Notes: generated by a model from the sequence alone, not told the origin. A DNA stretch of 61,597 nucleotides from an uncultured bacterium (GCA_963978095.1 CAXBQP010000010.1:1-61597); one strand, 5' to 3'. Counted from the stretch's first letter, positions 31,880 through 52,524 are shown. Program-made: numbers and translations.

Positions 31880-33258
31880 CCGTCGACGCCGAAGCGCGAG
31901 AGCTTGCGGTGCAAGGTCGAGGGATCGATCCCCAAGACTTCCGCTGCCCGCGTCTTGTTGCCGTGCTCCGCCTGCAACACCCACATGATGTAGGCGCGCT
32001 CGATGGTCTCGAGCGACGGGTTCGCGCTGCCACGATCCGACAGCAGCGATTCAGGGGTCGCCTCCGTGATGCGCTCGGGAAGCGCGGCGACGTCAATGAC
32101 GTCGCCCGTGGTCAGGATGACCGCGCGCTCCAAGGCGTTTTCCAGTTCGCGCACATTGCCGGGCCACCGGTACCGCTGCAACAGCGCGAGCGCCTCCGCG
32201 CTGAGGTGTTTGACCGGCTCCTGCCGCGACTCGGCGCGTCGCGCAAGGAAGGCGTCCGAGAGCAGCGGGATGTCGTCCGCACGCTCGCGCAGCGGCGGGA
32301 CGTGAATGGCGATCACGTTCAACCGATAAAACAGGTCACGCCGGAAGGTCCCGCGGCGAATCTCCTCCTCGAGATCACGATTCGTCGCCGCAATCACACG
32401 CGTGTCGATCGGCACCGCCTGCGTCGCGCCCACGGGGATCACCTCACGGTGCTGCAGCACGCGCAGCAACTTCACCTGCGTCGCCGGCGTCGTCTCCCCG
32501 ATCTCGTCGAGGAAGAACGTGCCCCCGGCGGCGGCGGTGAACAATCCGTCGCGGTCCTTCACGGCGCCGGTGAAAGCGCCACGCTGATGTCCGAAGAGCT
32601 CGCTCTCGAGCAGTCCCTCCGGCAGCGCGCCGCAGTTGATGGAGAGGAACGATCCGCTGTTGCGAGCGGACAGCTCGTGGATGTACCGGGCGACCACTTC
32701 CTTGCCCGTGCCCGACTCGCCCATCACCAGCACCGTGCTCTCCGTGGGCGCGACCGCCGCGGCCAGCCGCAAGACCTCCAACCACTTGCGGTTCTGTCCG
32801 ATCGGCGCGGCCGTGGACGCGTGGTCGCGCCGATGAATCTCGCGTTTGAGGGAACGGTTCTCCACGCGCAGCCGCCGGTGTTCGGCGGCACGGCGCAGAA
32901 TCGCCAGCAGATCGTCGTTGCGGAACGGCTTCTGGATGTAATAGAACGCGCCCGCATTGACGGCCTGCATGGCCGTCTCGAGCGAGGCTTGGGCGGTCAT
33001 CAGAATCACCGGGGTGTCCGCATCGTGCGCCTTGGCCGCATCGAGAATGTCGACACCACTCACCTGCGGCATTCGGACATCGGTCAGAATGATGTCCGGC
33101 GAAAGCGCGGCAACCTGCGCGAGCCCGGCCTTCCCCCCGTGCGCCAGATGGGGCACGAACCCGGCATTCCGCAGCAGGATGCCGAGGGATTCGAGGATGC
33201 TCTGTTCGTCGTCGACCACGAGCACGGTGGGCAGTGGCGGCTGATGCATGGCGTTCAC
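31876..33258 (-). CDS. pilR: Sigma-54-dependent response regulator (PilR-like)
   Basis: Receiver (VDDE, TDVRMP), GESGTGKE, ESELFGH, GAFTGA, FLDEIGE, FRRDLFYRLNV, WPGNVRELEN, Fis HTH. Confidence 0.88.
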   Translation of the reverse strand: MNAMHQPPLPTVLVVDDEQSILESLGILLRNAGFVPHLAHGGKAGLAQVAALSPDIILTDVRMPQVSGVDILDAAKAHDADTPVILMTAQASLETAMQAVNAGAFYYIQKPFRNDDLLAILRRAAEHRRLRVENRSLKREIHRRDHASTAAPIGQNRKWLEVLRLAAAVAPTESTVLVMGESGTGKEVVARYIHELSARNSGSFLSINCGALPEGLLESELFGHQRGAFTGAVKDRDGLFTAAAGGTFFLDEIGETTPATQVKLLRVLQHREVIPVGATQAVPIDTRVIAATNRDLEEEIRRGTFRRDLFYRLNVIAIHVPPLRERADDIPLLSDAFLARRAESRQEPVKHLSAEALALLQRYRWPGNVRELENALERAVILTTGDVIDVAALPERITEATPESLLSDRGSANPSLETIERAYIMWVLQAEHGNKTRAAEVLGIDPSTLHRKLSRFGVDG

Positions 33259-34949
33259 GAGAGATTCGGTGCCCCGGACCACGTCATCACAACGGGGTCG
33301 AAGGGGAGCAGGATGGTGAAGCGCGTCCCGGCTGGCGACGAATCCACCAACACGACGCCGCGGTGTGCTTCAACGGCCCGATGCGTGATCGAGAGCCCGA
33401 GCCCGGTGCCACCGACTTTGTTCGTGGCGAACGGCTCGAAGAGCCGGTTCTGGACATCGCTGGCGATGCCAGGTCCGGCGTCGGCGACCTGCACGCTGAG
33501 GGCGCCGTCGGGGAATGGCACGCCGCGTGGCACCTGATCCGGCGTGATCACCGACGCCGTGACGGTGACCTCGGTGCCCGCGCGCGTCGCTTGGAGCGCA
33601 TTCAGGACGAGGTTGAACACCGCGCGGTGCAGCAGATCCTCATCGCCGAACAGCGGCAACGGGTCATCGGCGAGGCGTACCGTCAGACGGGCGTCCGGCA
33701 TCCGCGACGGATGCTCTCCCGCCAGGGCACAGGCGGCACGGACGACGGCGGCCAGATCCACGCGATCACGCCGCGCGATCCGGACACGCGCGAAGTCGAG
33801 GAACTCCGTGAGGAGCGACGACAGGCGCGCCGATTCACGCACCACGAGCGCCCCGAGCGTCCGCTCGTCCTTCGAGGCGGTCGCGCGCGTCGCGAGTTGC
33901 TCGACCGCGCTCTGGATGGACGCCAGTGGATTCTTGATCTCATGCGCGAGCGACGCCGACAACTCAGCGACCGCCTCGAGCCGTTGCGCGCGCAGATGCA
34001 ACTGCTCGAGCCGCTTCTCGCCGGAGATGTCCTGGAAGATCGCGGTGAAGTTGCGGCGGATCCCCTCGGCGTCGCCGGCCGCCACCGAAATGGAGATGCC
34101 CACCGGCCGCGGTTGCGTATCGTGACGGAGTTCGAATTCGGCGCGCGTGACCCCCTGCCCCGACGCGATGGCGGCCTCGAGCAGTGCGGCGAACTCCGGC
34201 ACGGTGGTGCGCAGCGCGTTGAGCGCGGGCCGATTCAGGAATGCGGTGAAATCGAAGGGCAGCACCTTCGACGCCGCCGCATTGGCGAAGAGCAGGACTC
34301 CGCGGTCGTTGATGGTCAGGATGCCGGCCCGGATGTTGGCGAGGATATCGCGTTCCCGCAGTCGGACCGATGCGAGTTCGGCGGCGAGCGCTTCGCGTCC
34401 TTCCCCTGCCGCCTGCAAACGGGCGCTGATGACGCCGGTGCCGATCGCCACGGCCGAGAAGACGGCGATCTGCAACAGCAGACTCAACTCCAACGGGCCC
34501 GGACGCACGAGCAAGGCGTCGGCCGCATACACCACGCTGCCAAGCAAGGCGATCAGCACCGCGCCCCCGCCCGGCAGCAGCAGGGCGGCCGCGGCGTTGA
34601 CCGGGATATAGAGCGCCGCGAACTGTGACGCCGCTCCACCGGTGACGTGCACGATGCCGGTGATCACCAGCACGTCCACGACCAACTGACCGTACAGGAA
34701 CCCTCGCGTCAGCGGTTTTCGATTAACTTCCGTCCAGAGGAAGGAGACGGCGGTGACAAAGAGCGCGCCGACGAAGCAGAGTGTCGCAATGAGCGTTTTC
34801 TCTGAATCCGCGATGAGCCACTGGAAGACGGCGGCGAGGAAGATCGCGCTGGCCAGCATCAGACGGCTGACGTAGACCCACCGGACGAGTCGCCGAGGGG
34901 TCAGCACCGCAAGCCGTTGGCTTTCGTTCTTGGGCTGGGAAGTTCGCAC
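33255..34949 (-). CDS. pilS: Sensor histidine kinase (PilS-like)
   Basis: Six-TM N-terminus (VHVTGGAASQFAALY), PAS-like region, LAHEIKNPL, NLVLNA, DAGPG, FEPF, GTGLGL; coupled to pilR. Confidence 0.88.
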   Translation of the reverse strand: MRTSQPKNESQRLAVLTPRRLVRWVYVSRLMLASAIFLAAVFQWLIADSEKTLIATLCFVGALFVTAVSFLWTEVNRKPLTRGFLYGQLVVDVLVITGIVHVTGGAASQFAALYIPVNAAAALLLPGGGAVLIALLGSVVYAADALLVRPGPLELSLLLQIAVFSAVAIGTGVISARLQAAGEGREALAAELASVRLRERDILANIRAGILTINDRGVLLFANAAASKVLPFDFTAFLNRPALNALRTTVPEFAALLEAAIASGQGVTRAEFELRHDTQPRPVGISISVAAGDAEGIRRNFTAIFQDISGEKRLEQLHLRAQRLEAVAELSASLAHEIKNPLASIQSAVEQLATRATASKDERTLGALVVRESARLSSLLTEFLDFARVRIARRDRVDLAAVVRAACALAGEHPSRMPDARLTVRLADDPLPLFGDEDLLHRAVFNLVLNALQATRAGTEVTVTASVITPDQVPRGVPFPDGALSVQVADAGPGIASDVQNRLFEPFATNKVGGTGLGLSITHRAVEAHRGVVLVDSSPAGTRFTILLPFDPVVMTWSGAPNLS

Positions 34950-35028
34950 GAGGCTCCAGTATTGCAAATCGCAACAGATTTAGCATGGGGTTGGCCGTGG
35001 CGAAATGCAAGAGACAGGGGACACCACC

Positions 35029-44038: not shown

Positions 44039-44548
44039 TCACGGTTGTACGGGCAAGCCGGCACTGAGCGCGAGTACGACGCGTTCCTGCTGGCGCTCGC
44101 TGCCCCCGATGAGCACGGCCGCGAGGTTGTTCTGGACCATCCACTGGTGCAACACCGGTGGTTGTCCCTGGACGGACGCAGGAGCCAGCGCGGTGGTGTC
44201 GACCCGCGCGGTCGCGGTCCGACGCGCGACGGAGTCGGGAAAGATATACACCGTCAGGCGCGAGGCGCCGACTTGATAGACGATTCCGGGCACGCCGAAG
44301 CTCGGTGCCCCCGTCTCGCCGGGAAGCGCCTGCGGGGCCAGTCCGGCGCGTACGAGTCGCTCCACCAGATGCGGTTCATCCCACAGACCGGTCGTCACGG
44401 GGACAGCGGCTGCCGAGGCGGCCTGCGCGGCGGACGCCTCGATCGCCGAGCGTGCGGCGGCGACCGCCTTGGCCTTTTCGGCCGCGGGGTCGGCGCAACC
44501 GGCGAGTCCCACGCTGCAGGCGAGTACGCTGGAGGAGAGCAGACGCAT
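44039..44548 (-). CDS. Hypothetical lipoprotein
   Basis: Lipobox LAGC; TAGATT box 6 nt before the ATG. Confidence 0.7.
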   Translation of the reverse strand: MRLLSSSVLACSVGLAGCADPAAEKAKAVAAARSAIEASAAQAASAAAVPVTTGLWDEPHLVERLVRAGLAPQALPGETGAPSFGVPGIVYQVGASRLTVYIFPDSVARRTATARVDTTALAPASVQGQPPVLHQWMVQNNLAAVLIGGSERQQERVVLALSAGLPVQP

Positions 44549-44624
44549 GCGTGGAATCTATCGGAGCGGCGGGTGTGGTGAGACCGCGCCTGCCCTGCGG
44601 AGGGTCGGGCAGTATCTTTTGGAT

Positions 44625-45029
44625 ATGACACGGGAATCCGGACGCGAACCGCTCCGCGCGGTCCGCCTCGACAAGTGGCTCTGGGCCGCGCGGTTCTTCA
44701 AGACGCGTTCGATTGCCGTCGACGCGATCGCCGGCGGCAAGATCACCGTGAACGGCGACCGACCGAAACCAGCGCGTGAGGTGAAGGTCGGCGACGAACT
44801 CCGGCTGCGCCTCGGGCCGTATGAACACACGGTGATCGTCCGGGCCGTGAGCGACGCCCGCGGGCCCGCGGCCCAGGCCGCCCTCCTCTACGAGGAGACC
44901 GCCGCGTCCAGGACCGCCCGCGAACAGCACGCCTGGACTCTGAAACATGCCGCCCCGGTCATGGACTCCGGCGAAGGGCGGCCCACCAAGAAGGATCGTC
45001 GCACCTTCGAGCGGTCACGCGGCTGGTAG
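44625..45029 (+). CDS. hslR: Ribosome-associated heat shock protein Hsp15 (S4 domain)
   Basis: VRLDKWLWAARFFKTRS, RGPAAQAALLYEET, GRPTKKDRR. Confidence 0.93.
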   Translation: MTRESGREPLRAVRLDKWLWAARFFKTRSIAVDAIAGGKITVNGDRPKPAREVKVGDELRLRLGPYEHTVIVRAVSDARGPAAQAALLYEETAASRTAREQHAWTLKHAAPVMDSGEGRPTKKDRRTFERSRGW

Positions 45030-45047: not shown

Positions 45048-46586
45048 TCAGCCCTTCACGAGCGGCAACCAGAGCCGTACGGCCGCGCCGGTGGGCCGGT
45101 CCCGGTCCACGGTCAGATCGCCGCCAATCGATCGGGCGTGTGCCCGGACCCACGCGAGCCCGAGGCCGCCGCGCGCGCCGACGACTTCCTCGGCGCGTGG
45201 CGCTGCGAGCGTCGACAGCTCGTCGGCGGAGAATGGTGCCCCCGCATCGATGACAGCCAAACACGCGTAACTGCCGACTGCCACGCGCGGCCTCGAAAAT
45301 TCCTCCGTCGCCGACACGGTGACCACCTCTTGCCGCGACAGCTGCACATTGACCGTACCGCGAGGCGGCGTGCCGTCCCGCGCCTGTTCGCAGAGCTCCA
45401 CCACCATGCGCTCCAGCGCCTCCTCATCCGCGCGCACGAGCAGTCCCACGTCACTCGGCACGAGCGTCAGCAGCCGCTCGACGAACAGCGTGTCGAAGAT
45501 CGGCCGCATGCGCTCCACAAACTGGCCCAGCTCCACCAAGCTCGGCGCGGCCGGATCGGTGCGTGCGAACTCCAACAGCCGGCTCAGCTTGCGGGCCAAT
45601 CGATCGCTCGTTTCGGCGAGTGCCGCGTATTGCTCACGCCCGCGCTCGGTGCGGCGCAGCTCCGTGGCGACGAAGGTCGTGGCCTGCAACACATTCTTGA
45701 GATCATGCGCCACGGTGACGGCGAACTGTCCGGCATCGGCATCCGCCCGCCGGCCCGCCGCAATCCGCTCCACCAGGGTGATCCGCGAATGCTCCTCCGC
45801 CAGGTCATCATACGACAATCGCAGGCAGATCCCGACCACCGCACCCACCACCGCTCCGTTCACGGCCAGCACCGTGAACAGCAGCGCCATTTGGGAGTAG
45901 ATATTTTCCACGGCGAGCCGCGGCGCGCCAGGACCGTCGAACGTGTCCCACTGCCGTTCGGAGAGGGAGCGCATCGCCGCCGTGCTGACGAGCAGCACCA
46001 CCAATATCCACATGAGTCTGCGGCGCGGATGATTCGCGGGGACCGCGTACCACACCATCCCCGCGGCGACCAACTGCGCGAGTACCTTGAGCGCGAGCAT
46101 CATGCTGGCCACGGACATCGGCGACGCCGCCACCCAGGGCCCACCGAACGTGTACGGCAGGGTCGCGAGCAGTACGAGGCCGGCAACCAAAAGAATGCGG
46201 GGGCGCCATGTCCGGAACCGGTTCAGCGTCATCGCTTCCACGACGCCAACCATCGCGATCAGCCCCATGGTCCAGCAGAGCCACGACAGCAGGAGCGACG
46301 GCAGCTGCATCCACGAGAAACGCGGCGATATCACCGCGAGCTCGGCGCCGACGATCGTGAAGGCACCCAACGATTGCCACAACACGGCATCGAGAATCGC
46401 ACGCACGGTCGGCTGTTCGTACAACCGTTCGATCGCACGCAGCATGGCCCAGCCGCCGAGGTTCAGCACAAGGACGGAACCGCGCACGACGGTTTGAAAG
46501 ATTGCCGGATCCAACCCGCGCGACGCCTCCGCCGCGCCCGGCAGGAAAAGATCCGCGACCTCCGACAGCCACGCGAAGTCCATCAT
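45048..46586 (-). CDS. 7TM sensor kinase D: phospho-His retained, ATP-binding domain degenerate
   Basis: H-box VAHDLKN; N-box ELCEQARDG (no Asn), G1 DAGAP, no F-box, G2 GGLGL. Confidence 0.8.
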   Translation of the reverse strand: MMDFAWLSEVADLFLPGAAEASRGLDPAIFQTVVRGSVLVLNLGGWAMLRAIERLYEQPTVRAILDAVLWQSLGAFTIVGAELAVISPRFSWMQLPSLLLSWLCWTMGLIAMVGVVEAMTLNRFRTWRPRILLVAGLVLLATLPYTFGGPWVAASPMSVASMMLALKVLAQLVAAGMVWYAVPANHPRRRLMWILVVLLVSTAAMRSLSERQWDTFDGPGAPRLAVENIYSQMALLFTVLAVNGAVVGAVVGICLRLSYDDLAEEHSRITLVERIAAGRRADADAGQFAVTVAHDLKNVLQATTFVATELRRTERGREQYAALAETSDRLARKLSRLLEFARTDPAAPSLVELGQFVERMRPIFDTLFVERLLTLVPSDVGLLVRADEEALERMVVELCEQARDGTPPRGTVNVQLSRQEVVTVSATEEFSRPRVAVGSYACLAVIDAGAPFSADELSTLAAPRAEEVVGARGGLGLAWVRAHARSIGGDLTVDRDRPTGAAVRLWLPLVKG

Positions 46587-48043
46587 GCGAATGCTCCCGA
46601 CACCGACGGAATCCGCGATCCCGCATCCTGCGCCGGAATCCACATGCTGAAGGTCGCCCCCTCACCCGGGATCGAGGCGCACGCCACGTCACCGCCGATC
46701 GACCGCAGAAAGGTGCGGATGGAGGTCAAACCGAGCCCGGTGCCCTTGGTGCCTTTGGTGGTGAAGTATGGTTCGAAGAGGCGACCGACCAGTTCCGGCG
46801 AGATCCCCGCCCCGGCATCGGAGACCTGCACGAGCACACCGCGTCCCGAATTGATCTCTCGGGCGAACAGATCGGTCGGAGGCGCCGCATGCGCGACGGC
46901 GCGAATCCGGATGGTCGCGCCCGGCGGGGATGCGTCGCGCGCGTTCAGCACCAAGTTCGTGACGGCCCGCTCGAGATCAGCGGGTGAACAGGCCGCAACC
47001 AGGACCGGGGAACCGATCGTCAGCAACACCGAATGCTGTGGTGACAGCCGCTTGAGCACGGGCAGGGCGGTCCGAAGTACCGTCGCGATGTCAATCACCG
47101 GAATGCTCGACTGCGCCTGTGGGCGAACATCGGTCAATCGTTGGAGCAACGACGCGCCTTGCTCCGCCGCCAGCTCGAGCACCTCCGCCTCGTGCTGCAG
47201 CGCCGGATCGCGCCGCGCGAGCGCCGCGGAGGTGCTGACGTCGACGACGACCGCACTGATGTCGGAGGCGAGCCCGCGCGAGAGGGAGGCCAGCGCCTCC
47301 CCGCGCTGGCGCCGCGCTGCGCCGAACTCCCGTTGCATCTCGGCGTCGAACTGCAGCGTGATCTCATGTCGCTCATTGATCAACAGCGCCCAGAAATCGA
47401 GCGCCATCAGTACCACGGAGAACGCGAGCGTGCCCAAGAGTACGAAGATCTGGCGTCCGGCGGACACGCGGAATGTCGGGGACCCGGCATCCGTCAACAC
47501 GATCAGGAGCAGGGGACGCGCGGCCTGCACCACGAGCGTCACGTTCAGCAGGAACATCACACGTCGTGCACGATCCGGGAGCCCGCGGACGGCGAGCGAC
47601 ACGGTCACCAACACCAGCATCGCGAGCGCCGCGATCAGCTTGAGCAGCGACAGCAGATTCCCCGCGTACAACTGTGGGAGTCCGACCCCGAGCCCAACTC
47701 CCCCGGCGACCGCAAGCCAGAGCAGGCGTGTGTGCCCATCCGTCCTATCGACCCCGCGCACCGCCCGAAGCACCTCGCGCCAGGCGACCATGATCGCCGC
47801 GAGGGAGGCGACCGCGACGGAAAAGGCCGGACCAGCCCACGCGTCACGCCCCGTGCCGAGCGCGAAGTCGAGCACGAACTGCGCCGCCGACGCGACCGAG
47901 CCCACCCACCACACCGTCGACAGCGCACGCGCGAGTGGGCGCTTGGAGAAGCGGAAGAACAACTCGAGGCCCGCCGCACCGACCAGGAATTGGATGACGA
48001 CCAGGAGGTGCACGAGCAGGCGAACCGCGAACGTCTCCGGCAT
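46583..48043 (-). CDS. 7TM sensor kinase C: His replaced by Ser, ATP-binding domain intact
   Basis: H-box GLASDIS; NLVLNARDA, DAGAG, FEPYFTTK, GTGLGL. Confidence 0.82.
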   Translation of the reverse strand: MPETFAVRLLVHLLVVIQFLVGAAGLELFFRFSKRPLARALSTVWWVGSVASAAQFVLDFALGTGRDAWAGPAFSVAVASLAAIMVAWREVLRAVRGVDRTDGHTRLLWLAVAGGVGLGVGLPQLYAGNLLSLLKLIAALAMLVLVTVSLAVRGLPDRARRVMFLLNVTLVVQAARPLLLIVLTDAGSPTFRVSAGRQIFVLLGTLAFSVVLMALDFWALLINERHEITLQFDAEMQREFGAARRQRGEALASLSRGLASDISAVVVDVSTSAALARRDPALQHEAEVLELAAEQGASLLQRLTDVRPQAQSSIPVIDIATVLRTALPVLKRLSPQHSVLLTIGSPVLVAACSPADLERAVTNLVLNARDASPPGATIRIRAVAHAAPPTDLFAREINSGRGVLVQVSDAGAGISPELVGRLFEPYFTTKGTKGTGLGLTSIRTFLRSIGGDVACASIPGEGATFSMWIPAQDAGSRIPSVSGAFA

Positions 48044-48086
48044 CAGCCTGCGCCCCCCACACGAACAGAGCCCCCGATGACCACCC

Positions 48087-49604
48087 TCATACGGTCGTCT
48101 CGGCGGTTGGCAACCACAGTCGCACGGTGGTGCCCTCCCCCACACGACTGTCGATCGTCAGGTCGCCCCCAGCGGCCCGAAGCTGGCTGCGCACCGACAG
48201 CAATCCGAATCCTGCCTCGCGCGCCAGACGCTTGGTGAAGGTCGGTTCGAAGACCACCGCGAGTTCCGACGCGGAGAGCCCGACGCCCTGATCCGAGATC
48301 GTGAGCACACCGTATGCTCCCTCGGCCAACACCGGAGACTCACCCGCCAACCGTTCCATCCGATCGCTCCGCACTTCGAGAACCGAATCCGGCTCGGAAA
48401 AATCCCGCGCATTGCTGAGCACTTCCACAACGGCGTCCTCGAGGACCTGCAGTTGAACGCGCACCAGCAGGCTGCGGACGCTGGACTCCATCCGCAGATC
48501 GTGACGCGTCACCAACCCATCCAGCACGAGACGGAAGCGCTGCACGAACAGGGGGAGATCCACGTAGTCGCGCTGGGTGGGCAGCGGTTTCGCGTAGGCG
48601 CCCAGTCGCAGGATCCGCTCCTCCAACTGCCCATTCAACAGACGAACCGCGCTCACGTCCAACGCCGGCGCCTCCGTGGAGGTCAAGCTGGTCTCCATCA
48701 TCCGCACGCCGAGCATCAGATTGCGCAACTCATGACTCAGCCCGACGACGAACTGCCCCAACCTCGCTTCGTGCGACCGCGCCCCGCGCACCGCCTCCGC
48801 GAGCCGGAGTCGCTCCTGTTCCAACTGAATCCGCGCATGCGGATAGCGCGTGACGACCAGAAGAAAGGCCAGCACCAACGCCGAGGCCACCGAGAGGATC
48901 GCATTGAGTTGGACGATCTGAAGGAGCCCACCGCGCGGCGTATCGGCCGGAAGTCCGGCAGAGGACAAACTCAGGCGCACCAGTTCGCCGGAGATCGCAA
49001 AGAGCTGCGCTGCCAGGAAGTACTGGGTGGCGGGAAAATGCACGCTCATCCGGTCACGCGTCCGAACGGCGACCCAGACCGCGTGTCCGCCGATCATCAC
49101 ATTCGCAAGGAGCAGCATCATCGCGTTGGACGGCAGCGGCAGGTGGGGGAAACCGTGGCGCAACGCCACGACGATCGCCGAGATGACGAACGAAGCCACC
49201 GCCGCGCGTCGGATGCGTCCAAAGGACACCGACGGCGCCTCCTCACCGCGAAAAAAGGCCATGAGCACGTCGACGAGCGGGATCGATGACGCCATGGTGG
49301 CGATCGTCAGCACCGTCACGAGCGCGGTGAGCTCGCGCGGTACTGCCCAGCCGGCCGCGACCAGACTCAGCCAGAGGCCGCCAAGCTGGCGAATCCCGCG
49401 CAAGATCATGTAGGAGAAGACGACGCGGGTGAACAGCCGCCCCGTAATCGCTTCGAGCCGACGACCGGCCGCCGTCGTCAGCACGAGCACGCCGAGGAAC
49501 ACGAGGGCGGTGAACGCGTACTTTCCCTGCAAGTCCTGAGTGTAATGCCGCCACGGCTCCAGAGGCTCGGGCTGGAGGGCCAGGACAGACGGCGCGAGTC
49601 GCAT
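48087..49604 (-). CDS. 7TM sensor kinase B: His and ATP-binding motifs both largely retained
   Basis: H-box LSHELRN; EVLSNARDF, DQGVG, FEPTFTKR, AGFGL. Confidence 0.82.
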   Translation of the reverse strand: MRLAPSVLALQPEPLEPWRHYTQDLQGKYAFTALVFLGVLVLTTAAGRRLEAITGRLFTRVVFSYMILRGIRQLGGLWLSLVAAGWAVPRELTALVTVLTIATMASSIPLVDVLMAFFRGEEAPSVSFGRIRRAAVASFVISAIVVALRHGFPHLPLPSNAMMLLLANVMIGGHAVWVAVRTRDRMSVHFPATQYFLAAQLFAISGELVRLSLSSAGLPADTPRGGLLQIVQLNAILSVASALVLAFLLVVTRYPHARIQLEQERLRLAEAVRGARSHEARLGQFVVGLSHELRNLMLGVRMMETSLTSTEAPALDVSAVRLLNGQLEERILRLGAYAKPLPTQRDYVDLPLFVQRFRLVLDGLVTRHDLRMESSVRSLLVRVQLQVLEDAVVEVLSNARDFSEPDSVLEVRSDRMERLAGESPVLAEGAYGVLTISDQGVGLSASELAVVFEPTFTKRLAREAGFGLLSVRSQLRAAGGDLTIDSRVGEGTTVRLWLPTAETTV

Positions 49605-51085
49605 CACGATTCCGCCAGCGGCAGCGCGCGCGTCTCGAACCGCGCCGCATCGAGGGTATCGTCCGGAAGCCACAGATGAATGGTGAGCCGTCCCGAGGTG
49701 TTGCGCTCCGCCAGTGCATCTCCACCCAACAGTCTGGCGAAGCGACGCAATGAGCCGAGCGCCCCGTCACGACTCGGCACGCCGATCGGCGACGACGCAC
49801 TCTCGAACAGACTCTCGTCGTGCTCCGCCGTCGGCTTGGGCATGCCCTGCACACTGAGTCGCGCGTAGTTGCCGGCGGCCAACAGCCCGGATGGCGCGTC
49901 CAGCCGCTGGCTCGACAACCGCACATCGATGCACCGTTGCTCACCGAGACCTGCGTTCAAGAACAGAACGAGATTCATCAGGGCCCGTGAGAACTCTTCC
50001 GGCGGACACTCCGTGTGATGCAACTGCGTGCTGGGCGTCCACCGGATCTCCACGTCGGGAAGCATCCGGCGTACCCGCGGCAACGCCACCTCCACCAGGG
50101 TGCCGATCTCGAGCCGATGTCCTTCGATCATGGTCTCATCCGGCTCGCGCAACTGGGCCAGCAGCGCGCGCCCCTTTGCCTGCACCGCGTCGATGATCGC
50201 AAGCTCCGCGTCGTGAAACGGTTCGGTCGCGAGCTGCGCACGAACACTCTCGACGGCACCCACGAGCGCGGTCACGTTGCGCGCGATGCCCGTGGCGAGA
50301 TACCCGGCCGTCTCGAGACGTCGACGCCGCGACGCCGCCCCCTCAGCGGAGCGCAACCGCGCCGACCGTGCGTCGATCAACGCACGCTCCATCTCCACCG
50401 CCGCCGCCAACTGCGTATAGGCCACGGCCAGCATGGTGAACATCGCCGAGGCAATCGACAAGAGCTGCGCGGCCTGGTTCGGACCCGGGTACCCGGTCCA
50501 CGAACCGGCGATTGCCGCCTGTTGCAAGGGGCGGCTGGCGAGCAACACCATTCCCGTCACGAGCAGTCGATGCACCTCGCTGTTCCTGCGGGCGTTCCGC
50601 CCCTGCAGGTAGAACCAGAGCGCGCTCCCGCAGGCGACCAGCATGAGCACGGCGATCGGCACGCGCGACACCTCGAGTCCGTTTTGTCTCGGCGCTACGG
50701 GGGTCATCAGGACCACCACGACGCCGAGGACGGTGGAGACGGCCACCGACCGCAAAATCCGCGTGCGAAGGACAGCGGGTGGTTCGGGCCGCTCTTGCAC
50801 TTCCGCGAACGCGGAAGGCAACGTCGCGACCGACGCGAACAGGAACACGAAGAATCCGACCGTCCCCACGCGCATCAGCGCGAGGGAGTCGAAATAGTTG
50901 CCCAGTTGTCCGATCAGGGAGAAACATCCCGTCGCGACGCCGAAGGTCCAGAAGAGCGCCATCCGTCGCACGAGGCGCTGCTCGAACATGCTGGTGCCGA
51001 TCCAGCATCCCGCTGCGATCGCGACAAAGATCGTCGCCAGTATCGACTGCAACAGCAGCCGGAACGGAAGGGGATCGAGATGCAC
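49604..51085 (-). CDS. 7TM pseudokinase A: His replaced by Arg, ATP-binding domain degenerate
   Basis: H-box GIARNVT; N-box NLVLFL, no DxGxG (VQGMPKP), G2 GALGSL. Confidence 0.78.
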   Translation of the reverse strand: MHLDPLPFRLLLQSILATIFVAIAAGCWIGTSMFEQRLVRRMALFWTFGVATGCFSLIGQLGNYFDSLALMRVGTVGFFVFLFASVATLPSAFAEVQERPEPPAVLRTRILRSVAVSTVLGVVVVLMTPVAPRQNGLEVSRVPIAVLMLVACGSALWFYLQGRNARRNSEVHRLLVTGMVLLASRPLQQAAIAGSWTGYPGPNQAAQLLSIASAMFTMLAVAYTQLAAAVEMERALIDARSARLRSAEGAASRRRRLETAGYLATGIARNVTALVGAVESVRAQLATEPFHDAELAIIDAVQAKGRALLAQLREPDETMIEGHRLEIGTLVEVALPRVRRMLPDVEIRWTPSTQLHHTECPPEEFSRALMNLVLFLNAGLGEQRCIDVRLSSQRLDAPSGLLAAGNYARLSVQGMPKPTAEHDESLFESASSPIGVPSRDGALGSLRRFARLLGGDALAERNTSGRLTIHLWLPDDTLDAARFETRALPLAES

Positions 51086-51115
51086 GAGAGGGGACCGCCG
51101 CGAGCCGCGGGGGAG

Positions 51116-51502
51116 CTACATCGGTGCTGCGAGCACCTGCCGGACCGCGCTCAGCAGTTGCGCTTCGGTGAACGGCTTGAGCAATGTCGCATTCGCACCG
51201 ACCTGCGCCGCCACGGACAGATAGAGATCCGCCGAGCCCATTCCCCCGCCGGACATCGCGATGATCGGCAGCGTCGGATGGGAACGTCGAAGCTCGATGA
51301 TGGTCTCGACCCCTTCGCGGTCCGGCATCACGAGATCGGTCAGCACCAGGTCGAATCGCCCGGACTGCATCGCCTCGATCGCCAACCGCCCGTCGTTGAC
51401 GGCGAGCACATCGAACCCGGCGCGGTCGAGCACGAGCTCGAGCGACTTCAGAACCGACGGTTCATCATCGACCAGCAGAATGCTGATGTGCGAGGCTTCC
51501 AT
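51116..51502 (-). CDS. Single-domain response regulator (CheY-like receiver)
   Basis: VDDE, LTDLVMP phospho-Asp, AMSGG, LLKPF; no output domain. Confidence 0.92.
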   Translation of the reverse strand: MEASHISILLVDDEPSVLKSLELVLDRAGFDVLAVNDGRLAIEAMQSGRFDLVLTDLVMPDREGVETIIELRRSHPTLPIIAMSGGGMGSADLYLSVAAQVGANATLLKPFTEAQLLSAVRQVLAAPM

Positions 51503-51683: not shown

Positions 51684-52379
51684 CTACACCAATTTTTGTC
51701 CAGCGATTCTACGGAGTGTGGCGTCGTCGAGGCGGTGCCCCCCGTCAAACGTTTCGGCGCGGTAGGGAAACCCCGAGCCGTCGAGCCGCTCCCGTTCGCG
51801 GGCGACGACGTCGGCCGGCGCGAATCGATCGCGCGCGCCCACCACGAGGAGCGTGTCGGCCTGTCGGAGCGGGGCGTGGGGATTTGCGATCTCGAGTTCC
51901 GGGGGGACGGCGCATCCCCAGAGGATGTGCCGCGCAATGGGCGTAGATCCGCTCGCGACCCAGCGCGACGACGTGGCGCCACCCTGCGAGAAACCGAGGA
52001 CGGTCACGGGGGGCGCCACTCCGCCGAGCCGTTCGGTGATCGAGATGTGGAGTCCGGTGAGATAGCTCAGATAGTCACGGATCTCGTCCTCGCGCGCTTC
52101 CTTGGTCATCCAGCTCGCGCCGATCGGGACCTCCTTGCCGATGCGATCCTCGAGGCGTCCCGCGTAGTGGCGGGACAGCGCCTCTGGCGCGACGATCAGC
52201 CGGGAGCCGTCGTCGATGCAGCGAAAGTTCTCGAGGAAGGGCACGGCCAGCTCGCCGTAGCCGTGCAGGACGTACCAAAGTTCGCGGAGAACGCCGGTTG
52301 CATGGAGGTCGGCGCGTGGCTGGGGGCCGAGCAGGGCGAGACGTGCGGTCCGCGGCGTGGTGAAGGTCTCGAGGTGCAT
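51684..52379 (-). CDS. Phospholipase/carboxylesterase family alpha/beta hydrolase
   Basis: LHGYG, APEALS, ASWMT, GFSQGG, GARD, FDGGH. Confidence 0.88.
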   Translation of the reverse strand: MHLETFTTPRTARLALLGPQPRADLHATGVLRELWYVLHGYGELAVPFLENFRCIDDGSRLIVAPEALSRHYAGRLEDRIGKEVPIGASWMTKEAREDEIRDYLSYLTGLHISITERLGGVAPPVTVLGFSQGGATSSRWVASGSTPIARHILWGCAVPPELEIANPHAPLRQADTLLVVGARDRFAPADVVARERERLDGSGFPYRAETFDGGHRLDDATLRRIAGQKLV

Positions 52380-52524
52380 CGGTGAAAGCTGTCGTGCGTG
52401 GCGGCGGTGGGGTAGCGGCAGGGGTAGCGGCAGGGGGATCAGCTGGGGGAGCGGCCGGTGAGGCGTGGCGGATTGCGGTGCTTCCCGGTCCCGATTACCC
52501 TTCACCCTTCACCAGGAGCAGACC

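Follow-up and report, generated by a model that had tools for sequence, protein, structure and literature searches.

Here we describe a five-gene operon on the minus strand, positions 45048-51502, of a 61,597-nucleotide stretch of DNA from an uncultured bacterium (GCA_963978095.1 CAXBQP010000010.1:1-61597; hereafter the window), in which a stand-alone receiver is followed by four membrane-bound histidine kinase-like paralogues, A to D, that present all four combinations of a retained or lost phospho-acceptor histidine and ATP-binding domain. Based on motif analysis combined with comparisons across lineages, selection tests, trees and fold models, we propose, with a probability of about 0.48, that C and D constitute a natural split kinase, that A modulates B, and that both pairs act on the free receiver. 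The strongest single argument for a split kinase is C, the ATP motifs of which are conserved without an acceptor histidine. More generally, the retention of three differently defective kinases suggests, judging from their motifs, that these proteins work only as mixed pairs.

The operon consists of five consecutive open reading frames (ORFs), none with an internal stop. Gene 1 (51116-51502) encodes a receiver of 128 residues, of which 8-121 match Pfam Response_reg (E 1.8e-25). The fold, the acidic pocket (LLVDDE), the Asp in LVLTDLVMP, the Ser in IAMSG and the Lys in LLKPF are all present and an output domain is absent, as in stand-alone, CheY-like single-domain receivers; the protein scores under the cut-off of every named NCBIfam regulator. 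The motif states of the kinases were read from an alignment of the four, and the codon positions were obtained by translation. In A (49604-51085, GTG start, 493 residues), Arg269 of GIARNV replaces the phospho-acceptor histidine (codon 50279-50281), and the ATP domain lacks both the DxGxG signature (G1) and the F-box, with degenerate N and G2 boxes and no Pfam match, i.e. a doubly dead pseudokinase. In B (48087-49604, 505 residues), the H-box SHELRN holds His291 (codon 48732-48734) in an H-E-x-x-N context, and the ATP motifs are VLSNARD (N), SDQGVG (G1), VFEPTFTKR (F) and GFGL (G2), with an HATPase_c match of 2.8e-14 in Pfam. In C (46583-48043, 486 residues), comprising a membrane domain, a dimerisation and histidine phosphotransfer (DHp) domain without the histidine and a consensus ATP-binding domain, Ser260 of GLASDI takes the place of the acceptor (codon 47264-47266); the ATP motifs read LVLNARD, SDAGAG, LFEPYFTTK and GTGLGL (HATPase_c 1.2e-19), and the N, G1 and G2 boxes agree with the columns that are invariant across the aligned canonical kinases. 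D (45048-46586, 512 residues) joins a membrane domain to the H-box AHDLKN with His294 (codon 45705-45707; H-D-x-x-N) and to a degenerate ATP domain, in which the N-box Asn is replaced by Gln (LCEQARD), the second glycine of G1 by Pro (IDAGAP) and the F-box is missing, while G2 (GGLGL) is retained. Its Pfam matches are HATPase_c at 1.6e-8 and HisKA at 8.1e-5 (23 bits, against a cut-off of 26.9).

Measured against class I kinases, the histidine is thus found in B and D, the ATP boxes in B and C, and both only in B, which by its motifs would be the sole self-sufficient kinase of the four. D is predicted, from its motif losses, to be unable to bind Mg-ATP. C and D would therefore carry ATP binding and phospho-acceptor on separate polypeptides, as expected of a split kinase. 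An earlier note, made from the sequence alone, had described the four kinase ORFs as full-length and unframeshifted and had assigned the four histidine/ATPase states and the codons of the A and C substitutions; the ORF calls and the alignment bear out each of these statements. It had also described CckA-type cores without a fused receiver, in agreement with NCBIfam, where the cores resemble VirA-like/CckA kinases at best scores of 32-102 bits against cut-offs of 647-1000, a likeness of the core only. An alternative acceptor histidine in C (in QHEAEVLEL, where DHp helix 2 begins) was rejected, as it is Tyr in a third lineage introduced below, and a nearby histidine in A moves by one position between lineages.

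The operon belongs to uncultured freshwater lake Gemmatimonadota, within one sub-clade of one genus. Full-length orthologues of A and D occur in two of the 29 other species of the genus (G022 and G026), and none of A was found among 31 genomes of neighbouring genera and families; D was searched within the genus only. A pattern search across 185,579 species genomes returned the same two loci, both titled Gemmatimonadetes metagenome-assembled genomes (MAGs) from lakes, and a 26-residue match in a betaproteobacterial MAG (L030, E 6e-4) was treated as chance. Among 5.8 billion proteins, further clusters number four for A, four for D (one a fragment) and three for C, beyond which follows a gap and then generic CckA-like hybrid kinases of at most 35% identity over the core. 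According to pairwise identities, a third lineage is represented by one A, one C and one D cluster, and its locus was recovered on a metagenome contig (L056); a metagenome scan with the A alignment gave 601 pattern matches and no relative among them. The D fragment (P0010) shows the D state and is about equally distant from all three lineages.

In all four loci with enough flanking sequence, i.e. the window, L026 (G022), L027 (G026) and L056, the five genes recur in an unchanged order and with unchanged motif states, and all four kinases are full-length and unbroken. A retains Arg in G-I-x-R-N-V and no G1, B retains SHELRN with N, G1 and G2, and C retains GLAS[DE]I together with a consensus ATP domain, the Ser being present in all four ortholog clusters. 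In D, VAHDLKNVLQAT and GGLGLAWVRAH are identical in five of five clusters, with Gln, His or Arg at the N-box position and DxGxP as G1. These states persist at identities between lineages of 47-56% for the kinases, compared with 90-91% for the receiver and 72-94% for the syntenic flanking genes. Ratios of non-synonymous to synonymous substitution (dN/dS; Nei-Gojobori) were calculated for the unsaturated pair G022-G026 (dS 0.22-0.46), yielding 0.04 for the receiver, the most conserved gene of the operon, and 0.31, 0.27, 0.29 and 0.40 for A, B, C and D, respectively. The DHp domain is the most constrained part of all four (A 0.13, B 0.14, C 0.15, D 0.09), with ATP-domain folds at 0.21-0.49 and membrane parts at 0.32-0.51, and the intact B is under no tighter constraint than the degenerate A, C and D. 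The earlier note had named intact motifs in orthologues, or random decay with dN/dS near 1, as outcomes that would speak against it; decay is excluded by the same states in all lineages and the dN/dS of 0.27-0.40. Hence, the degenerate kinases are maintained by purifying selection and are not decaying.

The gene junctions couple the kinases in pairs. In the window, A and B meet in TGATG, with one base common to the stop of A and the start of B, and the stop of C overlaps the start of D in ATGA; both start-stop overlaps are present in four of four loci. The receiver and A are separated by 30 nucleotides, and B and C by a 43-nucleotide spacer (48044-48086). The overlaps and the spacer are as first described for the window. 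The accompanying picture of two overlapping pairs with a gap between them holds for the window and L056, where the B/C spacer is about 40 nucleotides, but not for G022 and G026, where B and C also overlap in ATGA and all three kinase junctions are thus overlapping. The gap between the two pairs is accordingly not a conserved feature of the operon. The pairing of A with B and of C with D, likewise proposed earlier, fits the overlaps in all loci as well as the order of the paralogues in trees (see below).

We propose that the operon operates using the following mechanism. C and D would form a mixed DHp bundle, a natural split kinase, in which C, through its intact ATP domain, trans-phosphorylates D at His294. 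D, with its H-D-x-x-N kinase/phosphatase motif, would pass the phosphate on to the stand-alone receiver and could also remove it. B would autophosphorylate alone, and the doubly dead A would modulate B by heteromerisation. Up to four membrane inputs would in this manner converge on one receiver, which may act by protein contact or as a relay. As the ATP motifs of C remain at consensus in all lineages although the acceptor histidine is absent, its ATP chemistry is likely still in use. A kinase ATP domain needs an acceptor, and in the coupled neighbour D the H-box is invariant and the ATP domain dead; hence, a C/D split kinase is favoured. The C-D and A-B contacts, trans-phosphorylation of D, modulation of B by A, phosphotransfer to the receiver and AND-gate logic are putative steps that reach beyond the conserved motifs. 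In a stricter form, which is possible and which we advance tentatively, C and D would be obligate heteromeric class I hemi-kinases, with output requiring two sensors at once and free D functioning as a phosphatase. If this is true, C/D would be a hard-wired switch or coincidence detector such as theory predicts for split kinases, and the first such obligate hemi-kinase case among transmembrane HisKA kinases. Complex prediction of C 225-486 with D 258-512 gave ipSAE values of 0.29, 0.32 and 0.29 relative to a mark of 0.32, with control pairs not run, and weighs neither way.

Several points count against this proposal. A and B do not fit the C/D geometry: B holds both the histidine and the ATP domain and hence needs autophosphorylation in cis or a B homodimer, and the role of A is the weakest step of the model. 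DHp positions His+7, +11 and +12, which set partner specificity in EnvZ-type kinases, differ between B (L/M/M) and D (Q/F/V), which is unexpected if the two serve one receiver. Kinases without the histidine and with a retained ATP domain can act non-catalytically, as DivL does. Furthermore, the evidence base consists of three to four related lineages of one genus and not of independent origins, and the A+C grouping in the trees described below has a support of only 90-92/89-91, to which shared loss of the H-box or long branches could contribute.

The alternative that survives best, albeit unlikely, is that the kinases form separate homodimers, with B as the sole kinase, D as a dedicated receiver phosphatase, and A and C as non-catalytic scaffolds or sensors that would bind the receiver or B, in the manner of DivL or RetS. 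Histidine kinase paralogues usually evolve away from heterodimerising after duplication, in agreement with such an arrangement. D also retains H-D-x-x-N, a motif tied in the excerpted text of PMC3591291 to phosphatase activity that does not require ATP hydrolysis, and the A model best matches the kinase region of RetS, which is functional without ATP binding (PMC8498467, excerpt). However, separate homodimers would leave the strictly conserved ATP motifs of C without use, and explain neither the complementary losses within each translationally coupled pair nor the alternating order of histidine-less and histidine-bearing genes.

Less probable again is a phosphorelay from B to the free receiver (Spo0F-like), on to His294 of D as a membrane-bound Spo0B/ChpT-like phosphotransferase, and finally to an output regulator encoded elsewhere. 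Spo0B and ChpT comprise a helical hairpin with a histidine and an ATP-domain fold that is unable to bind ATP, and D shares this anatomy, a histidine hairpin together with a pseudo-ATP domain without ATP-binding motifs. In addition, the receiver lacks an output domain and is better conserved than any other gene in the operon, the cores are CckA-like and ChpT derives from the CckA lineage, and no ChpT-family match over cut-off is present in the window's genome, so the role is not otherwise filled. Against this, D does not hit PF10090, the family of the ChpT C-terminus, at E<=1, its fold model is closest to true kinases (ZraS, CckA, RetS and CpxA), and it carries a large membrane domain of about 260 residues, whereas Spo0B and ChpT are soluble. 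Moreover, no terminal regulator is encoded nearby, and the relay leaves C and A without a role.

It is improbable that C is instead directed at serine, through autophosphorylation of Ser260 or phosphorylation of a Ser/Thr of a partner. Kinases of the same fold do phosphorylate serine, as known from anti-sigma factor kinases and plant ethylene receptors, and the serine lies at the acceptor position of all four C clusters beside a perfect ATP domain; however, apart from the acidic residue kept at +1, nothing else points to serine chemistry, and D would be unexplained. Finally, that A, C and D are functionless decaying duplicates of B, as the loss of residues essential for autophosphorylation from three of the four and the much faster evolution of the kinases relative to their neighbours might indicate, is already contradicted by their full length in every locus, the same substitutions being kept at 47-56% identity, and the low dN/dS of all four kinases and their DHp domains, and is highly improbable.

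The split-kinase proposal is also compatible with the likely history of the operon. Trees built from the cytoplasmic regions, in which canonical members of the family formed a third group, unite B with D as sisters at a support of 100/99, and A with C at 90/91 (19 rows) or 92/89 (23 rows, third lineage added, G006 omitted). One G006 outgroup row is included in the 19-row tree only, and the topology is the same without it. A and C are thus probably sister paralogues, and with both sister pairs the gene order A-B-C-D reads X1-Y1-X2-Y2. We consider the most likely history, as suggested by these trees, to be tandem duplication of a two-gene unit formed by a histidine-less X, the ancestor of A and C, followed by a histidine-bearing Y, the ancestor of B and D. 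Both X descendants are without the histidine, and both Y descendants keep it in H-[DE]-x-x-N, while the ATP domain is retained once per unit, in B of the first and in C of the second. Each pair therefore holds exactly one histidine and one intact ATP domain.

In the window, the operon is flanked by an esterase-like gene (51684-52505, minus strand) and an Hsp15/S4-like gene (44469-45029, plus strand). These are direct neighbours in 23 of the 25 other genus members from which this locus was recovered, or 22 of 24 without the unpublished G006; the remaining two of the 25 loci (L061-L085) end at a contig edge. The adjacency of the flanking genes elsewhere in the genus identifies the operon as a clean 6.5-kb insertion confined to one sub-clade, and it has since been inherited vertically at a fixed site. 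In the genome, metagenome and protein searches, nothing nearer than generic kinases came up. Elsewhere in the genus, the receiver's nearest homologues, at 52-57% identity, are located in multi-receiver clusters, at L050 (G028), L051 (G012), L052 (G014) and L053 (G003). In L050 and L051 they lie directly beside hybrid kinases of 1,665-1,720 residues, and at none of the four loci does a membrane kinase of the A-D type adjoin the receiver homologue. A search for intermediate operon forms near receiver homologues in six other genus members returned unrelated contexts only.

The kinases appear to be descended from a broader family. An HMMER search of 1.84 billion representatives with a profile of A identified multi-pass membrane kinases of about 485-520 residues, aligning over residues ~4-482 of A, membrane part included, in P0134 (E 1.9e-18) and a dozen others. 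The N and G1 boxes are present in all 19 of the relatives examined and the canonical AHD-x-x-N H-box in 18 of them, and the multi-pass kinases of other genus members are canonical too (the comparators include one G006 protein). From these alignments, the operon is taken to descend from a family of ~500-residue multi-pass membrane kinases, the other members of which are canonical. One distant family member, P0189, has Arg at the aligned acceptor position followed directly by His (G-I-A-R-H), which is explained either by a shift in register or by a stage on the way to the A state. Profiles of the membrane parts alone match the family at 2e-9 for A, 3.9e-9 for C, 1.5e-4 for B and 1.7e-4 for D, with reversed controls at 0.008-0.64, indicating a firm tie for A and C and a marginal one for B and D. 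Direct hhalign comparisons among the four membrane domains, using three-sequence profiles, are not significant (E 0.04-0.26), and a common origin is therefore apparent only through the wider family profile.

The nature of the membrane part is less clear-cut. The AlphaFold2 model of A (predicted local distance difference test, pLDDT, 76) contains seven transmembrane helices, the last of which continues into DHp helix 1, and that of D (pLDDT 81) has six to seven. The seven-helix topology stated in the earlier note for all four kinases therefore agrees with the A model and less certainly with that of D, models being the only basis. Both models continue into a kinase fold, formed by the DHp hairpin and the alpha/beta ATP-domain fold of the catalytic and ATP-binding (CA) domain (pLDDT above 90 in D), and for B and C the latter is indicated by the HATPase_c matches. 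In Foldseek, the best matches of the A model are the RetS kinase region, HK853 and CckA (E 1e-7), and those of D ZraS, CckA, RetS and CpxA (E 2e-12), with no ChpT or Spo0B entry among the 30 matches listed for D. No Pfam membrane domain, HisKA_7TM, 7TMR-DISM, MASE and 5TMR-LYT included, matches the N-terminal 230-260 residues of A-D at E<=1, and the membrane domains of six canonical relatives have no Pfam match at E<=0.1. In an Atlas features search, only clusters without a name reached 0.90-0.91; HisKA_7TM and MASE4 scored 0.85, which lies in the chance range.

To place these losses in context, ORFs of at least 200 residues in the window's genome (2.98 Mb, 91% complete) were searched with a canonical kinase-core profile at E<=1e-5. 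The H-box histidine is present in 26 of the 28 matching ORFs, the exceptions being A and C. The N-box Asn is absent in three (A, D and a contig-22 ORF without an aligned ATP domain) and DxGxG in four (A, D, the same contig-22 ORF and a contig-8 HAMP kinase). The degenerate kinase cores of the genome are thus concentrated in this operon. The contig-8 protein (62695-64317; L086:2217-3818:+) is a HAMP-HisKA-HATPase kinase adjoining an OmpR-type regulator, with a degenerate G1, N-T-G-A-P, that resembles D-A-G-A-P of D; its histidine and N-box Asn are kept.

The elements of the proposed mechanism have precedents. Heteromeric kinases, pseudokinases, a split CheA and receiver hubs are already in print (PMC12189002, PMC8498467, PMC3591291, 10.1101/554154, PMC11481889, all as excerpted). 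A natural, adjacent membrane-kinase pair with reciprocal loss of the histidine and the ATP domain is not described in the full-text literature searched, the scope of which does not extend to subscription journals. The closest parallels are RetS-GacS, treated below, and CheA3/CheA4 of Rhodobacter sphaeroides, a split kinase whose two proteins are each unable to autophosphorylate on their own, together with HisKA proteins without HATPase but with an H-E/D-x-x-N/T motif, which are proposed to be split bifunctional kinases (excerpts of PMC3591291). There, as in C/D judging by sequence, ATP binding and acceptor histidine reside on two proteins, and the CheA3/CheA4 type also has a histidine-bearing partner with phosphatase capacity feeding a single-domain receiver (same source), both features being predicted here. 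In contrast, the CheA proteins are class II and cytoplasmic, with whole domains missing, whereas C and D are full-length class I membrane paralogues with their own membrane modules, in which the lost part is kept as a conserved but inactivated domain, and the C-D complex is a predicted one.

In Pseudomonas aeruginosa, RetS no longer binds ATP and contacts GacS through a DHp-DHp interface (PMC8498467, excerpt). The RetS-GacS network, which also includes PA1611 and LadS, thereby resembles the operon in that a kinase-like protein dead for ATP binding controls a real kinase (excerpts of PMC8498467 and PMC12189002). RetS is, however, inhibitory, encoded away from gacS, keeps its histidine and has receiver domains, whereas the operon holds adjacent coupled paralogues with reciprocal losses, among which C would be an activator. 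In DivL of Caulobacter, the acceptor histidine is replaced by Tyr. DivL is similar in that a histidine kinase fold without the acceptor serves as a regulator reading the state of a single-domain receiver, but it acts non-catalytically on CckA and has no histidine-bearing, ATP-dead paralogue partner. The DivL structure 4Q20 is among the Foldseek matches of the D model.

Laboratory complementation offers another parallel. Intermolecular complementation of kinase mutants is classic for EnvZ and NtrB. Likewise, GacS H293A and a G2-box variant complement each other in trans, i.e. one subunit without the histidine and one without ATP binding, active only together, as C and D may be (PMC8498467, excerpt). 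Those pairs are engineered point mutants of one protein, unlike the natural, old (47-56% identity) and selected divergence observed here. Regarding convergence on one receiver, MrrA of Caulobacter is a single-domain receiver hub (cited in PMC11481889, excerpt), and SkaH-LovK-SpdS form heteromeric kinase complexes (bioRxiv 10.1101/554154, excerpt); in these systems, too, several kinases address one output-less receiver and different kinases form heteromers, but the kinases are intact, dispersed in the genome and without reciprocal catalytic losses.

In the textbook view, histidine kinases are homodimeric and paralogues are selected against mixing; CheA is the only kinase for which split forms are documented, and pseudokinase partners mostly inhibit. 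The operon would represent a natural, selected version of mutant complementation, combining the ATP domain of one paralogue with the histidine of its neighbour, and A/B provides a control pair in the same operon, in which one member combines the two working parts and the other has neither. Should the pairs prove heteromeric, they would constitute a testable system for the choice between cis and trans autophosphorylation, for the evolution of dimerisation specificity among paralogues, and for the question whether bacteria build two-input logic within one kinase dimer. These organisms are uncultured, the operon family is tiny, and whatever goes beyond sequence is inferred.

Further observations concern expression and individual members of the operon. 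Short contigs from two metatranscriptome libraries of one study (X13 and X14) match the operon at 95-100% identity, with pieces on the receiver and its junction with A, as well as on A, B and C. They hint only weakly at expression, as such libraries can hold DNA, and the lack of a piece on D carries no weight. A promoter and terminator scan returned one promoter-like site (0.6 expected) and three terminator-like sites (4.7 expected) and is uninformative. In B of G022 (L026), the loop between the DHp helices contains a Ser/Thr-rich insertion with a T-S-S-T-S-S-T-S run; the window and L056 lack this insertion, and G026 has a shorter one. The loop of the DHp hairpin is thought to set cis versus trans autophosphorylation. 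Outside the operon, a second, intact histidine kinase is encoded 10 kb away in the window (33258-34979, minus strand), in an open frame of 574 residues with the H-box SLAHEIKNPL and all ATP motifs present.

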